Below, piece by piece: positions 1 through 5,551 of a DNA stretch of 5,551 nucleotides. The notes under the pieces are model-generated. The model did no database searches and had not been told where the DNA came from. It saw only the letters and a program-made list of their open reading frames with translations. Position numbers and translations under genes: made by a program. Where the stretch lies: positions 1 to 5,551 of the IMG/VR virus record IMGVR_UViG_2690316166_000013; one strand, 5' to 3'. This DNA comes from a virus. Taxonomy: Duplodnaviria; Heunggongvirae; Uroviricota; Caudoviricetes. The number at the start of each line of letters is the position of its first letter. Positions within the stretch are counted from its first letter, which is position 1.

Positions 1-3000
1 AAACGTCCGAGACGAACGCCAGGTCTTCTGAAACGGCAGCGGGACAGAGTGCCTCAGCTGCGGCAGGCTCAAAAACAGCGGCTGCGTCGTCTGCCAGCGC
101 CGCGTCAACAAGTGCCGGGCAGGCCTCAGCCAGTGCCACCGCCGCCGGAAAATCGGCAGAAAGCGCCGCATCATCCGCTTCAACAGCCACAACGAAGGCT
201 GGCGAAGCCACTGAGCAGGCCACGGCAGCAGCGAGGTCAGCTTCCGCAGCGAAGACATCCGAAACGAACGCGAAAGCGTCGGAAACCAGCGCAGAATCCT
301 CAAAAACGGCTGCCGCATCGTCCGCCAGTTCGGCGGCGTCATCGGCATCATCGGCGTCTGCTTCAAAAGATGAGGCGACCAGACAGGCGTCAGCAGCGAA
401 GGGCAGCGCCACGACGGCATCCACGAAGGCGACAGAGGCTGCTGGTAGTGCGACGGCAGCAGCTCAGAGCAAAAGTACGGCGGAATCCGCGGCAACGCGC
501 GCCGAGACAGCAGCTAAACGGGCAGAGGATATTGCATCCGCCGTGGCGCTTGAGGATGCAAGTACGACGAAAAAGGGGATAGTACAGCTCAGTAGTGCGA
601 CTAACAGCACTTCCGAGTCACTGGCGGCAACACCAAAAGCCGTTAAGGCCGCGTATGACCTGGCTAACGGGAAATACACCGCACAGGATGCAACGACAGC
701 ACAGAAAGGGATAATCCAGCTAAGCAGCGCGACCAACAGCACGTCTGAAACGCTGGCGGCAACGCCAAAGGCAGTAAAAGCAGCCAATGACAATGCTGAG
801 AAACGTCTGCAGAAAGATCAGAACGGTGCGGATATCCCTGGCAAAGACACCTTTACGAAAAATATTGGTGCCTGCCGTGCCTTCGGTGGGTCAGTAAGCA
901 CAACAACAGGAAACTGGACGACTGCACAGTTTATCGAGTGGCTGGATTCTCAGGGAGCATTTAACCATCCATACTGGATGTGCAAGGGTTCCTGGTCTTA
1001 TGGCAATAATAAAATCATTACTGATACTGGCTGCGGTAATATTCATCTCGCCGGAGCTGTCATTGAAGTAATGGGGATAAAGTCAGCGATGACGATCCGC
1101 ATTACCACTCCGACCACATCCAGCGGTGGCGGAACAACCAACGCCCAGTTTACCTATATTAATCACGGAACAGATTATTCACCTGGCTGGCGAAGGGACT
1201 ATAACTCCAGAAATAAGCCAACGGCATCAGAGATCGGGGCGCTACCGTCAGGTGGAACAGCAGTATCATCAGTTAATCTGGCTTCAAAAGGTCGGGTAGC
1301 CGCGCTGACAGACAATACGCAGGGGGCAGCAGGTCTTGAGTTATACGAGGTGTATAACAACGGATATCCAACAGCGTATGGAAATATCATTCACCTGAAA
1401 GGGATGACAGCCGTTGGCGAAGGTGAGTTACTCATCGGCTGGAGTGGTACAAGCGGTGCTCATGCTCCGGCATTTATTCGTTCACGACGGGATACGACCG
1501 ACGCAAACTGGTCGCCGTGGGCGCAGCTTTACACCTCGGCTCATCCTCCTGCAGAGTTTTATCCAGTCGGTGCACCAATCCCGTGGCCATCAGATACCGT
1601 TCCGTCTGGTTATGCCCTGATGCAGGGGCAGACTTTTGACAAATCTGCTTACCCGAAACTTGCAGCCGCTTATCCGTCAGGCGTGATCCCTGATATGCGT
1701 GGCTGGACGATTAAGGGCAAGCCCGCCAGTGGTCGTGCCGTATTGTCTCAGGAACAGGACGGCATTAAATCGCACACCCACAGCGCCAGCGCATCCAGTA
1801 CGGATTTGGGGACGAAAACCACATCGTCGTTTGATTACGGCACTAAATCCACGAATAACACCGGGGCGCATACGCACAGTCTGAGCGGCTCTACAAGTTC
1901 AGCTGGGGCCCACCAACATAGTCAGACTGGGCCCAGAACGAATAGCGGGAGTCAACCTACTGGAATGTTTCCGGCAGGGAGTACTCAAGTTAGCGGGACT
2001 AATCAGGTTGGTATCAGTGGCTCATTAACCAGTGGCACCTCCCAATGGGTAATCGTTAACGATAACTTGTCGTGCAAAAAACTTTTTGCCACAGACGAAA
2101 TTGTAGCGCGTGGTGGTAATCAGATTCGAATGATAGGTGGGGAGTATGGTGCATTATGGCGTAATGATGGCGCTAAAACTTACCTGCTGCTTACCAATCA
2201 AGGTGATGTTTATGGTGGCTGGAATACATTAAGACCGTTTGCTATTGATAACGCAACCGGCGAACTGGTTATTGGAACCAAACTGTCCGCAAGTCTGAAC
2301 GGTAATGCATTAACAGCAACAAAGCTGCAAACGCCAAGACTGGTTTCTGGTGTTGAGTTTGATGGTTCCAGAGATATTACTTTAACCGCTGCGCATGTTG
2401 CTGCTTTTGCCAGAAGAGCAACGGATACGTATGCCGATGCGGATGGGGGCGTTCCCTGGAATGCCGAATCAGGCGCTTACAATGTCACCCGCTCTGGCTA
2501 CAGCTATATTCTGGTTAACTTCTATACCGGAGTCGGAAGTTGCCGGACCTTGCAGATGAAGGCGCATTACAGAAATGGTGGTCTGTTCTACCGTTCTTCA
2601 AGAGACGGTTATGGTTTTGAGGAAGATTGGGCAGAAGTTTATACCTCGAAAAATCTTCCACCAGAAAGCTACCCAGTCGGCGCACCAATCCCGTGGCCAT
2701 CAGATACCGTTCCGTCTGGTTATGCCCTGATGCAGGGGCAGACTTTTGACAAATCTGCATACCCGAAACTTGCAGCGGCTTATCCGTCAGGCGTTATTCC
2801 TGATATGCGTGGCTGGACGATTAAGGGCAAGCCCGCCAGTGGTCGTGCCGTATTGTCTCAGGAACAGGACGGCATTAAATCGCACACCCACAGCGCCAGC
2901 GCATCCAGTACGGATTTGGGTACGAAAACCACATCGTCGTTTGATTACGGTACTAAATCCACGAATAACACTGGTGCGCATACCCATAGTTTAAGTGGCA

Positions 3001-3359
3001 GCACGAATGCAGCTGGTAATCACAGCCATAGAGATGGCCGTCGATTTAACCCCAGTGTTTTTAAAGATACTTATCAATATGGTTATACAAGCTCAGGTCA
3101 AAATACTTGGGGTGTACAAGGCTCAGTAGGTATGTCTACGGGGTGGTTAGCTAATACCAGTACAGATGGTAATCATAGCCACTCACTGTCCGGCACAGCA
3201 GCATCTGCAGGTGCACACGCACATACTGTCGGTATTGGTGCTCATACGCACTCTGTTGCGATTGGTTCACATGGACACACCATCACCGTTAACGCTGCTG
3301 GTAACGCGGAAAACACCGTCAAAAACATCGCATTTAACTATATTGTGAGGCTTGCATGA
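1..3359 (+). CDS. stf: Side tail fibre protein (lambda Stf-like), 5'-partial; the gene starts upstream of the window
   Basis: Frame beginning at nt 3 is open with no stop to TGA 3357-3359 (translated by hand: [20 protein letters not shown]...). The ORF track starts it at 543 only because no ATG/GTG/TTG occurs earlier in frame. Ala/Ser/Thr/Lys-rich N-terminal region, twin GI(V/I)[11 protein letters not shown](S/T)LAATPKAVK motifs, PIPWPSD...[13 protein letters not shown] module, C-terminal His boxes ([30 protein letters not shown]) and terminal [22 protein letters not shown] match lambda Stf as I recall it. At least 1118 codons in window. Confidence 0.9.
573..836 (+). repeat. Tandem pair of phage-tail-fibre repeat motifs (132-nt period), coding, inside stf
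   Basis: [32 protein letters not shown] (from ~573) and [32 protein letters not shown] (from ~705) lie 44 codons apart; nucleotide copies are diverged but clearly related. Confidence 0.6.
1563..1870 (+). repeat. Intragenic direct repeat, copy A (partner at 2673-2980)
   Basis: Hand alignment of 1573-1860 against 2683-2970 shows 7 mismatches in 288 bp, including a 122-bp perfect block (1689-1810 = 2799-2920). Offset is exactly 1110 bp. Both copies encode the identical peptide [112 protein letters not shown]. Confidence 0.85.
2673..2980 (+). repeat. Intragenic direct repeat, copy B (partner at 1563-1870)
   Basis: Same alignment as copy A; identity decays after ~2970 but the protein stays similar ([20 protein letters not shown] vs [20 protein letters not shown]). 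Confidence 0.85.
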
Positions 3360-4246
3360 TTACGCTCATTCTTTCTGCACCAGTAACAGAAATGGCTGAA
3401 GCATTTAAGCGGGTATTTGCAAACGCAGATAATGTGAATATTGTCGGAAAGCCATTTGAAACAATCAGAGAATTTGACTGCATGGTAAGTGCGGCAAATA
3501 GTTTCGGCCTGATGGATGGCGGCGTTGATGCCGCCATTACCGCATTCTTCGGTACTCAGTTACAGTCCCGCGTTCAGAATCATATTCTTCGTGAATATCT
3601 AGGCGAACAGCCTGTAGGTTCTGCATTTGTAATTGAAACGGGGCATAATCATCACCCCTGGCTGGTACATGCGCCAACAATGCGTGTTCCGCTGACAATT
3701 GACGGAACAGACGCTGTATATAATGCAACCTGGGCCGCTCTGCTTGCCATCTTTCAGCACAATAAAAACGCAACGACAGACAGGAAAATAAAGACGGTGG
3801 TATTCCCTGCAATGGGGGCCGGATGTGGTCAGGTTCCGTTTGAAAGCGTTGCCTGGCAAATGAAGCAGGCATGGGATAACTTTAATAAGAAAACAGAATC
3901 AATTTACTGGGAATACGCACACTCCCGCCAGTCGGCAGTATTTGGCACATATGCATACTGTCCGGGTAATTCTGTTTGCCGTTATGCGGATACTAAATAT
4001 ATTGGATGCGGCGATTATCGGACGTATTGCTCACGTTCCGGGCAGTTCTGTATTAGCCATGTGCATCAGGCTGATGACGTGCTGACTAATAATCGCTCTC
4101 GCCCTGATTCGCATACACACCGGTTTAATCCAGAAAATCCCGTAGGCAATCTCACCTCTGGCGCACATAGCCACGGAAGTAGCATCGTTATTGGTGCTCC
4201 CACCCATACGCTCAATAAACAATATTCTGTCTCTGATATTAAGTAG
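3356..4246 (+). CDS. Macro-domain (ADP-ribose binding / ADP-ribosyl hydrolase-like) protein with Cys-rich, His-box tail-fibre-like C-terminal extension; function unknown
   Basis: 296-codon ORF. ATG 3356 overlaps the stf stop (ATGA, 3356-3359) and has GAGG at 3347-3350. Macro-domain motifs seen in the translation: SAAN (N48, nt 3497-3499), [11 protein letters not shown] (aa 51-61) and [14 protein letters not shown] (aa 148-161), comparable to the NAAN / GGGVDGAI / FPAISTG motifs of YmdB/MacroD. C-terminal aa ~181-296 contain C-x5-C-x9-C-x6-C-x6-C followed by DSHTH...[17 protein letters not shown]. Stop TAG 4244-4246. Confidence 0.7.
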
Positions 4247-4254
4247 AGGTGAAC

Positions 4255-4771
4255 ATGGATTTTAGAATGACTGAACAACCACGGACCATAAAAATTTATA
4301 ATTTGCTGGCCGGAACTAATGAATTTATTGGTGAAGGTGACGCATATATTCCGCCTCATACAGGTCTGCCTGCAAACATCGTGGCATCTCGTTGAAGATC
4401 ATCGGGGTAAAACGGTTTATGACGTGGCTTCCGGCGACGCGTTATTTATTTCTGAACTCGGCTCATTACCGGAAAATGTCACCTGGTTATCCCCGGAAGG
4501 GGAGTTTCAGAAGTGGAACGGCACAGCCTGGGTGAAGGATACGGAAGCAGAAAAACTGTTCCGGATCCGGGAGGCGGAAGAAACAAAAAACAGCCTGATG
4601 CAGGTAGCCAGTGAGCATATAGCGCCGCTTCAGGATGCTGTGGATCTGGAGATCGCAACGGAGAAAGAAACCTTGTTGCTGGAAGCCTGGAAAAAGTATC
4701 GGGTGTTGCTGAACCGTGTTGATACATCAACTGCACCGGATATTGAATGGCCAGTAGCACCTATAGGGTAA
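4255..4771 (+). pseudogene. tfa: Tail fibre assembly protein (lambda Tfa-like), disrupted by a frameshift / internal deletion
   Basis: ATG 4255 with GAGG at 4246-4249. Frame 1 reads [41 protein letters not shown], then IVASR and TGA at 4393-4395. The rest of the Tfa-like sequence ([133 protein letters not shown] 4769-4771) continues in the +1 frame from ~4379. Against lambda Tfa as I recall it, ~22 codons ([22 protein letters not shown]) are missing at the junction, a deletion of 3n+2 nt. Confidence 0.75.
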
Positions 4772-4853
4772 ATTCGTAATGATTACCTAAATACGTTATT
4801 CTTTTGTTAAAAAAGTGATTTTGCTATAGGTAGGGAGTATGTTCTTGGATTAA

Positions 4854-4888
4854 GAATAAAAAATCGCCATGAAAGAGCTTCATGGCGA
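4854..4888 (-). terminator. Rho-independent terminator for a minus-strand transcript
   Basis: Perfect 10-bp stem TCGCCATGAA (4864-4873) / TTCATGGCGA (4879-4888) with 5-nt loop. On the minus strand the hairpin is followed by TTTTTTATT (complement of 4854-4862). There is no T-run after it on the + strand. Confidence 0.45.
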
Positions 4889-5036
4889 GTACATAAACGT
4901 ACAAAATGTGATGAAAGTAGAGTGGCGTAAGCCACTATATTAAGATATGACAATAGCGAAGAAAAGTAAATAACATTTTATGGACGTTTAATTGTTAATT
5001 ATAAAAACTAGAGTGCCCGATATTGTTTATCTTGCT

Positions 5037-5138
5037 TTAAAATAATGTACTCAAACCAAATTTTTGAGCTAAAAGCTCAAATAATATAAATGCAATAATA
5101 ATGTTTAATAAGACAATTAGCTTGCTTTGTATTTTCAT
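5037..5138 (-). CDS. Candidate small hydrophobic protein (33 aa), hypothetical
   Basis: Minus-strand ATG (5138-5136) to TAA (5039-5037) encodes MKIQSKLIVLLNIIIAFILFELLAQKFGLSTLF: basic N-terminus then one predicted transmembrane helix. Possible sigma70 promoter upstream on the minus strand (TTGACT, complement of 5196-5201; 17-bp spacer; TATTGT, complement of 5173-5178) and the terminator at 4854-4888 downstream. No clear Shine-Dalgarno; below the ORF-track size cutoff. Confidence 0.2.
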   Translation of the reverse strand: MKIQSKLIVLLNIIIAFILFELLAQKFGLSTLF

Positions 5139-5520
5139 TTCGGAATACTGTTAAGTAACTTTGATGACCCTAACAATAGATCGGAATTTTCTTAGAGTCA
5201 ATGGTCACTGTTTTTGCTTGCAAAGCAAATGTTTTGGTGGTTATAAGTTGTCTTAATATAGTCACGCATGCAACTTGTTCCATGCGGAGATTAAAGATTG
5301 GAATATAACGCGAAGATGGAATTAAATTACATTTGCAATAATCAATTTATTATTACTCAATAATTACCGATATTATTATTGTAAATTAATCATTAGAGTG
5401 CAAAAAGAAATGTAACGGCAAAATAAGAGGACGATAGCTGAGAAAAAAGCGTGCTTTCCCAATCTGGGGCAAATCACGTCTGAATGACACCTGAAAACAG
5501 GTGGTAGCCTCAAGAAGGCT

Positions 5521-5551
5521 GGTGATGCTGCCAACTTACTGATTTAGTGTA
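5521..5551 (+). mobile_element. IS1 insertion sequence, left terminal inverted repeat (element continues past the window end)
   Basis: GGTGATGCTGCCAACTTACTGATTTAGTGTA matches the first 31 nt of IS1 (IRL GGTGATGCTGCCAACTTACTGAT...) as I recall it. Confidence 0.85.

Follow-up and report, generated by a model that had tools for sequence, protein, structure and literature searches.

A lambda-type tfa gene inactivated by an inherited 65-nt deletion in a mosaic lambdoid prophage

A lambda-type tail fibre assembly gene, tfa, has been inactivated by a frame-disrupting deletion of 65 nt. The gene occupies positions 4255-4771 of the window, which is the whole stretch of viral DNA analysed here (5,551 nt; positions 1 to 5,551 of IMG/VR record IMGVR_UViG_2690316166_000013). 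The deletion is genuine: it is an inherited allele and characterises the Shigella sonnei lineage. We regard the locus as very probably an ordinary, already-sequenced pseudogene allele in a decaying mosaic lambdoid prophage: one more case of cryptic prophages decaying by small microhomology deletions in an IS-rich Shigella/E. coli lineage. The DNA upstream of the deletion has a different parentage from the DNA around it, matching linear phage-plasmids of the N15 type. We discuss the deletion and its recurrence, the mosaic in which it is embedded, the state of the fibre gene and of the prophage, and the functions that might remain to the pieces of tfa. The features on which the discussion draws are collected in Table 1.

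Table 1. Positions of the features discussed, in window coordinates.
Feature	Position	Strand	Remarks
S. sonnei att-lambda prophage-type fibre segment	1..2051	+	99.5% identical to HE616528.1 locus L015, 7677-9727; gap-free, 10 differences
Side tail fibre (stf) ORF, C-terminal 1118 codons	3..3359	+	two-parent chimera with two collar-domain modules
Left recombination junction	2050..2051		TA microhomology, in frame, mid-domain; from three-way alignment
N15-like linear phage-plasmid segment	2050..4340	+	fibre C-terminal half, macro gene, first ~50-85 nt of tfa
296-aa macro-domain protein gene	3356..4246	+	ATG overlaps fibre stop (ATGA)
tfa 5' fragment	4255..4395	+	ATG, 41 native + 5 frameshifted codons, TGA; Shine-Dalgarno GAGGTG
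Right (homologous) crossover interval	4304..4340		37 nt, in conserved tfa 5' part, upstream of the deletion
S. sonnei-identical stretch	4304..5551	+	deleted tfa, AT-rich prophage right end, IS1 junction; 0 differences to L015
65-nt deletion junction	4377..4378		CA microhomology; from alignments
tfa 3' fragment, +1 frame	4379..4771	+	native residues 64-193, complete Caudo_TAP, TAA 4769-4771
IS1, first 31 nt (inverted-repeat end)	5521..5551	+	window stops inside; ~750 nt downstream of tfa

The extent of the deletion was defined by aligning window 4240-4790 with lambda tfa (NC_001416 21973-22557, annotated 'tail fiber assembly') and with tfa from an E. coli ST2350 prophage (L001 5055-5630). The three-way DNA alignment contains a single 65-column gap in the window and is otherwise free of indels up to the last codons; relative to intact tfa of lambda and of E. 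coli prophages, exactly 65 nt are missing from 4255-4771. The original prediction, made from the letters alone, had put the loss relative to lambda at about 65 nt. The junction reads GCAAA[CA]TCGTGG, and the bracketed dinucleotide occurs at either end of the deleted segment in intact tfa; the breakpoint first proposed (gca aac a|tcg tgg) agrees with it within the 2-nt ambiguity.

At the protein level, Tfa codons 42-63 are lost, and residues 1-41 and 64-193 lie in separate frames, shifted by +1. Translation initiated at ATG 4255 reads 41 native codons (MDFRMTEQ...GLPAN) and 5 frameshifted ones (IVASR) before reaching TGA 4393-4395, and the C-terminal 130 native residues (S64 to G193) are encoded at 4379-4768. 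The split over two frames and its stop had been predicted with all coordinates right, as alignment and translation confirm. The +1-frame part is contained in a mechanically called ORF of 150 aa (4319-4771), which is Tfa-like from residue 21 onward; its first 20 residues are out-of-frame sequence. Pfam Caudo_TAP (PF02413) matches residues 29-148 of this ORF over profile positions 1-130 of 131 (E = 2.3e-44). The family phrog_105, 'tail fiber assembly', matches both pieces of the gene, including residues 1-43 of the 5' fragment. Both halves share ~94% DNA identity with lambda tfa, and window 4377-4754 is 100% identical to the intact ST2350 gene.

In its layout, the gene resembles lambda tfa (orf-194) and the Caudo_TAP family that includes tfaQ and tfaR: it lies downstream of a side fibre gene on the same strand, 896 nt past the fibre stop, and retains a full Caudo_TAP. 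It departs from lambda in lacking the 65 nt, in its division between two frames, and in the macro-domain gene that intervenes, whereas lambda tfa overlaps the stf stop. Other tfa remnants are found in cryptic prophages of E. coli, such as a 132-nt stump in the same att-lambda prophage of strain AR_0369 and an internal-stop tfa pseudogene near appY in ST2350. The K-12 genes tfaD, tfaX, and tfaS are further remnants of this kind. Unlike these, the lesion studied here is a small internal deletion, with the two ends of tfa retained, and it typifies the S. sonnei lineage.

The deletion recurs. By exact look-up of the 150-aa product, we located the identical junction in the complete 4,988,504-bp chromosome HE616528.1 (GCA_000283715.1), whose protein the source names 'Shigella sonnei' and which we take to be the chromosome of S. 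sonnei 53G. The same junction is present in two draft loci (L016/L017) and in two IMG/VR contigs, such that L015-L019 all share it, and each of these sequences aligns gap-free to window 4255-5551; the exact scan of IMG/VR used a 27-mer across the deletion junction, GCAAACATCGTGGCATCTCGTTGAAGA. In the cluster table, the 150-aa product is found on 104 contigs with names from S. sonnei and E. coli, corresponding to 104 blocks in the index. A sequencing error, to which the original prediction had left room, is rejected for the deletion, since the identical junction recurs in independent assemblies. Furthermore, the identity of window 4304-5551 to the S. sonnei chromosome, without a single difference and with the IS1 junction included, argues for common descent rather than for recurrent deletion.

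Intact alleles are common: annotated as tfaQ or tfaR, they match the window at 100% in their flanks and have the 65 nt that it lacks. Since the deletion, the 3' part of the gene has taken on no further changes and remains 100% identical to the intact allele, which would fit a recent lesion but does not in itself point to decay. Searched with a 46-nt query centred on the junction, whose flanks are too short to seed a match alone, 5,426 complete E. coli RefSeq genomes gave no match; a positive-control query of the same length, placed 20 nt further on, matched 3,459 E. coli genomes. An exact scan of GTDB species representatives did not find the junction, and exact look-up of the 46-aa and 48-aa N-terminal peptides returned no match. 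Complete E. coli RefSeq genomes contain no place that covers 80% or more of the window. The recurrence has a practical side: the out-of-frame 150-aa remnant, which ought to be marked as a pseudogene, carries the label 'tail fiber assembly protein' in more than 100 assemblies.

Upstream of the deletion, the window changes parent. Window 2050-4378 is 99.6% identical to N15-like loci (L003/L004), and 3279-4340 is identical; the neighbours of these loci include a TelK-type telomere resolvase and SopB/ParA. The window thereby resembles the N15-like phage-plasmids of E. coli and Shigella (TelK/TelN, SopAB) at 99.6-100% identity over 2050-4340. It differs from them in running into att-lambda prophage DNA rather than into sopBA and the telomere, and in its deleted tfa, which is intact (191 aa) in all 10 of the 10 N15-like loci with an identical macro gene. 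The right crossover can be placed within a short interval. Seven positions within 4259-4303 differ from the S. sonnei type, positions 4341, 4347, 4353, and 4368 differ from the N15-like type, and the stretch between is identical to both parents. This stretch of 37 nt lies in a conserved 124-nt tfa 5' region, and the left junction shares TA only. Judged from the sequences, the replacement fits the pattern of homology-facilitated illegitimate recombination.

These elements suggest a history in several steps. A 65-bp deletion between two CA dinucleotides removed tfa codons 42-63 and shifted the frame, and the S. sonnei lineage inherits the lesion within a defective lambdoid prophage that occupies the lambda attachment site on its ybhB-bioA side. 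The upstream DNA would then have been swapped for an N15-like module comprising the C-terminal half of the fibre gene, the macro gene, and the first part of tfa, through a homologous crossover within tfa at 4304-4340 and an illegitimate one at TA 2050-2051, with 2.3 kb of foreign DNA between them. Because the homologous crossover falls upstream of the deletion, the incoming intact tfa would have left the deletion unrepaired. We infer the order of these events, as well as the direction and mechanism of the 2050-4340 replacement. As an exchange between a phage-plasmid and a chromosomal prophage, it is a tidy case of module traffic and not new in kind.

Strains of S. sonnei do carry N15-like plasmids with this fibre type, as in NZ_CP061364.1. 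This plasmid, from S. sonnei 6207, was rejected as the exact donor: it is 98.0% identical over window 2050-2971 and lacks the fibre 3' end, the macro gene, tfa, and sopBA. The record (L020/L021) is a 42.4-kb N15-like sequence deposited as circular, in which the fibre collar-repeat region jumps to a point ~180 nt upstream of the telomere resolvase gene; the gap may be real, the record then being a deletion derivative, or it may come from mis-assembly of a linear replicon with hairpin ends. Separately, one N15-like contig (L011; GCA_025827525.1, JAOSMW010000064.1) is a perfect palindrome that reads through a fibre fragment, macro, tfa, sopB, and parA, and then through their mirror image. Such a palindrome is what read-through of the covalently closed hairpin telomere of an N15-like linear plasmid would be expected to produce.

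A mosaic of this kind raises the matter of artefact. The 65-nt gap might be an error, or a plasmid locus might have been mis-joined to a chromosomal deleted tfa through 4304-4340. The window does start in a repetitive fibre region and end 31 nt into IS1, as a short-read contig would; the right switch of parentage sits in the 37 nt common to both parents; and S. sonnei strains can hold both elements. In addition, the exact combination of chimeric fibre, macro gene, and deleted tfa occurs in no other record searched. Against these points, the deletion is present in a complete chromosome and in many independent assemblies, and a 37-nt repeat is easily spanned by ordinary reads. The left join, moreover, shares only the 2 nt at 2050-2051, too little for a k-mer graph to have produced it, and so this recombinant, at least, is present in the DNA itself. 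We consider a sequencing or assembly artefact unlikely.

The fibre gene is open and chimeric. Its frame is free of stops from window base 3 to TGA 3357-3359, and Pfam recognises Phage_fiber_2, Collar (in two stretches), and Gp34_trimer. The left join falls at aa 697 of the N15-like fibre, within the span of 663-762 that Pfam matches to Gp34_trimer, and the window fibre retains just half of that trimerisation domain. The original prediction set a broken chaperone beside an intact fibre: the open frame stands, but the ORF is an in-frame chimera of S. sonnei-type and N15-like sequence joined in the middle of Gp34_trimer. A join of this kind has a one-in-three chance of staying in frame, so the open ORF is weak evidence of function, and the chimeric fibre is presumably non-functional. 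More generally, an uninterrupted fibre ORF at such loci is no proof of function, as illegitimate recombination yields in-frame chimeras. The fibre chimera junction, marked by the 29-mer CCTCCCAATGGGTAATCGTTAACGATAAC, was not found in complete E. coli genomes, IMG/VR, JGI metagenomes, plasmids, or phages.

A more constructive reading of the same chimera can be framed. The dead prophage might have captured the host-range module of a co-resident N15-like plasmid, consisting of the fibre tip and a macro gene with HxH motifs, and might still express the chimeric fibre and the macro protein, folded with Tfa provided in trans by the plasmid or by other tfa-bearing prophages. Were this reading true, the locus would still work as a platform on which plasmid and chromosomal phages exchange receptor-binding modules, and the break in tfa would be of no consequence and no sign of death. 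We hold it to be quite improbable.

The fibre gene has further features of its own. A direct repeat of 300 nt (1518-1817 versus 2628-2927; 92% identical, 1110 nt apart) represents the two collar modules, and a second pair (553-659 and 685-791; 107 nt, 75% identical) is a repeat of the kind usual for Phage_fiber_2. Of the ten differences between window 1-2051 and the S. sonnei chromosome, nine lie in window 288-563; this clustering suggests a short gene-conversion patch from the fibre gene of another prophage.

To return to the decaying mosaic prophage, its surroundings are those of a known chromosomal site. A total of 280 E. coli genomes share a block made up of the tfa 3' end, 750 nt of AT-rich DNA downstream of it, and the IS1 end (5521-5551). 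Annotated examples identify the block as the right-hand extremity of a lambdoid prophage integrated at the lambda attachment site, adjoining an AraC-family gene, ybhB, and bioA. An IS1 InsA gene and an IS1A transposase are found at matching positions in the S. sonnei chromosome (L015) and in L014, and an uninterrupted relative, STEC313, aligns to the window only up to 5520. Relative to STEC313, the S. sonnei prophage encodes a lom product of 160 aa rather than 199, through the loss of 78 nt from the gene's end, has gained IS1 with 743 nt lost, and has its AraC gene split. In E. coli AR_0369, which carries the same prophage, a terminase fragment is fused to a lom fragment, and the tfa stump is the 132 nt already mentioned. 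A decaying cryptic prophage, one of the outcomes originally envisaged, is borne out by this wider damage: the IS1 end 750 nt downstream and the chimeric fibre in the window, the additional lesions of the S. sonnei prophage, and the shorter tfa stump elsewhere in E. coli.

It is these other lesions, and not the loss of tfa, on which we judge the prophage to be defunct. Side tail fibres are dispensable for lambda plaque formation, and laboratory lambda lacks them through an stf frameshift (PMC12617516); tfa loss alone thus need not kill a lambdoid phage. E. coli genomes have a median of two tfa-like places, from which Tfa might be provided in trans. Lambda PaPa, compared with Ur-lambda, likewise has a single frame-disrupting lesion in a lambdoid side-fibre system (PMC12617516). 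The two cases differ in what is broken: in PaPa, the fibre is broken and tfa is intact, whereas in the window it is the chaperone gene that is disrupted, next to a chimeric fibre gene and in a prophage with other lesions.

What remains for the pieces of tfa depends on where ribosomes start. ATG 4255 has a predicted anti-Shine-Dalgarno pairing of -7.3 kcal/mol, against only -3.5 kcal/mol for ATG 4319 and for TTG and GTG codons close to it. One internal start alone pairs better, GTG 4424, whose GGGG lies ~17-20 nt upstream, too far to serve. Ribosomes entering at the well-placed ATG 4255 would end after 46 residues, and with termination there the Caudo_TAP domain would be left untranslated. The only alternative would be weak internal initiation, yielding a product that lacks at least 63 residues from the start of the fibre-binding N-terminal domain. 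The internal starts presumably give no useful restart product.

According to PMC9608196, which cites the Mu Tfa structure 5YVQ, Tfa proteins bind the distal fibre through their N-terminal domain and probably oligomerise through the conserved C-terminal helices. The Tfa of phage Mu (PDB 5YVQ chain B) follows the same two-domain logic, and its C-terminal helical region aligns (query 127-191, E = 1.3e-8). The N-terminal domains, by contrast, are not alignable by sequence, and the deletion therefore cannot be mapped directly onto the solved structure. In an AlphaFold2 model of the intact counterpart (P0031), helices 118-175 are confident and the N-domain has a pLDDT of 40-60; being confident only in the C-terminal helices, the model was not used for fold searches. 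Mapped on it, the deletion falls in the N-terminal beta region, taking part of the 33-53 loop and strand 54-59, and the structural argument from this modelled domain would lend weak support to loss of function. In-frame deletions affect the same region in a few rare tfa alleles, with residues 42-57 missing from P0130 and 32-49 from P0137. On inspection of the DNA, the P0130 loss reads as a deletion between two AACAGT repeats, and the N-terminal region of tfa looks deletion-prone.

A tfa that is still functional in split or shortened form could be imagined on these grounds: a Caudo_TAP protein made from ATG 4319 or later, possibly together with the 46-aa peptide, would aid fibre trimerisation. 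The complete, unmutated Pfam Caudo_TAP in the +1 frame is compatible with it, as are the annotation of the 150-aa ORF as 'tail fiber assembly protein' by pipelines, the existence of the P0130 and P0137 alleles, and the role in oligomerisation attributed to the C-terminal domain (PMC9608196). We find it highly improbable nonetheless. Ribosome-binding signals are weak at ATG 4319 and too distant at GTG 4424, the ORF begins with out-of-frame residues and its product would lack 63 residues of the fibre-binding domain, and the fibre to be served is itself a mid-domain chimera. The Tfa homologues listed are mostly ~190-205 aa in a single frame with both PF28596 and PF02413; in the window, the N-terminal and C-terminal domains do not share one such ORF.

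Programmed +1 ribosomal frameshifting in the 4319-4395 overlap, which would join the two frames with TGA 4393 as a possible pause site, is rejected as extremely improbable: as originally predicted, no slippery or shifty motif precedes the stop (CGU UGA A), homologues do not keep a two-frame architecture but read a single frame with the extra 65 nt, and the shifted product would still lack 22 residues.

The gene wedged between fibre and tfa had gone unmentioned in the original prediction. Its 296-aa product has a Pfam Macro match at residues 44-166 (E = 3.9e-18) and matches phrog_2613, a family of unknown function. Exact look-up of the protein returned only N15-like contexts among the matches listed; the gene also lies between fibre and tfa in ST2350-type loci, and in both kinds of locus the neighbouring tfa is intact. 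The macro protein was rejected as a substitute chaperone, as it co-occurs with intact tfa in 10 of 10 N15-like loci; differences in gene calls among those loci (137 aa, or no call) are annotation noise. Its annotations vary between 'RNase III inhibitor' and 'phage tail protein', and its 90%-identity cluster has 579 members from E. coli and Shigella prophages and N15-like phage-plasmids. The last ~50 residues carry HxH motifs resembling the fibre C-terminus, a likeness at the level of motifs only (BLASTP E = 0.29), and a DNA repeat links 4172-4206 in the macro gene to 3216-3250 in the fibre gene at 71%. The gene seems to encode a late-operon, possibly fibre-associated macro-domain enzyme that is uncharacterised and of more interest than the tfa lesion.

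Several observations concern RNA and small ORFs. Rfam IS009 (RF02111) matches 4533-4731 (+) at full length with 218.5 bits, wholly within the C-terminal coding region of tfa; from this position, the IS009 'sRNA' family appears to represent conserved coding sequence of tfa, or remnants of that gene. A weak isrG match (21 bits, E = 0.011) lies at 1-164 (-), within the Ala/Ser-rich fibre region. Just downstream of tfa, 4852-4985 (-) is a structured RNA candidate (MFE -29.1 kcal/mol; z = -6.2 versus shuffles) that ends in a perfect intrinsic terminator with a stem at 4888-4864 and a U-run. A 2026 preprint describes a prophage sRNA, PasB, that is typically flanked by IsrG and IS009 Rfam matches, and PasB might lie in this window. 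Finally, the AT-rich right end of the prophage contains a hydrophobic ORF of 33 aa, MKIQSKLIVLLNIIIAFILFELLAQKFGLSTLF, at 5037-5138 (-), which could be a small membrane peptide, a toxin-like gene, or a product of chance.
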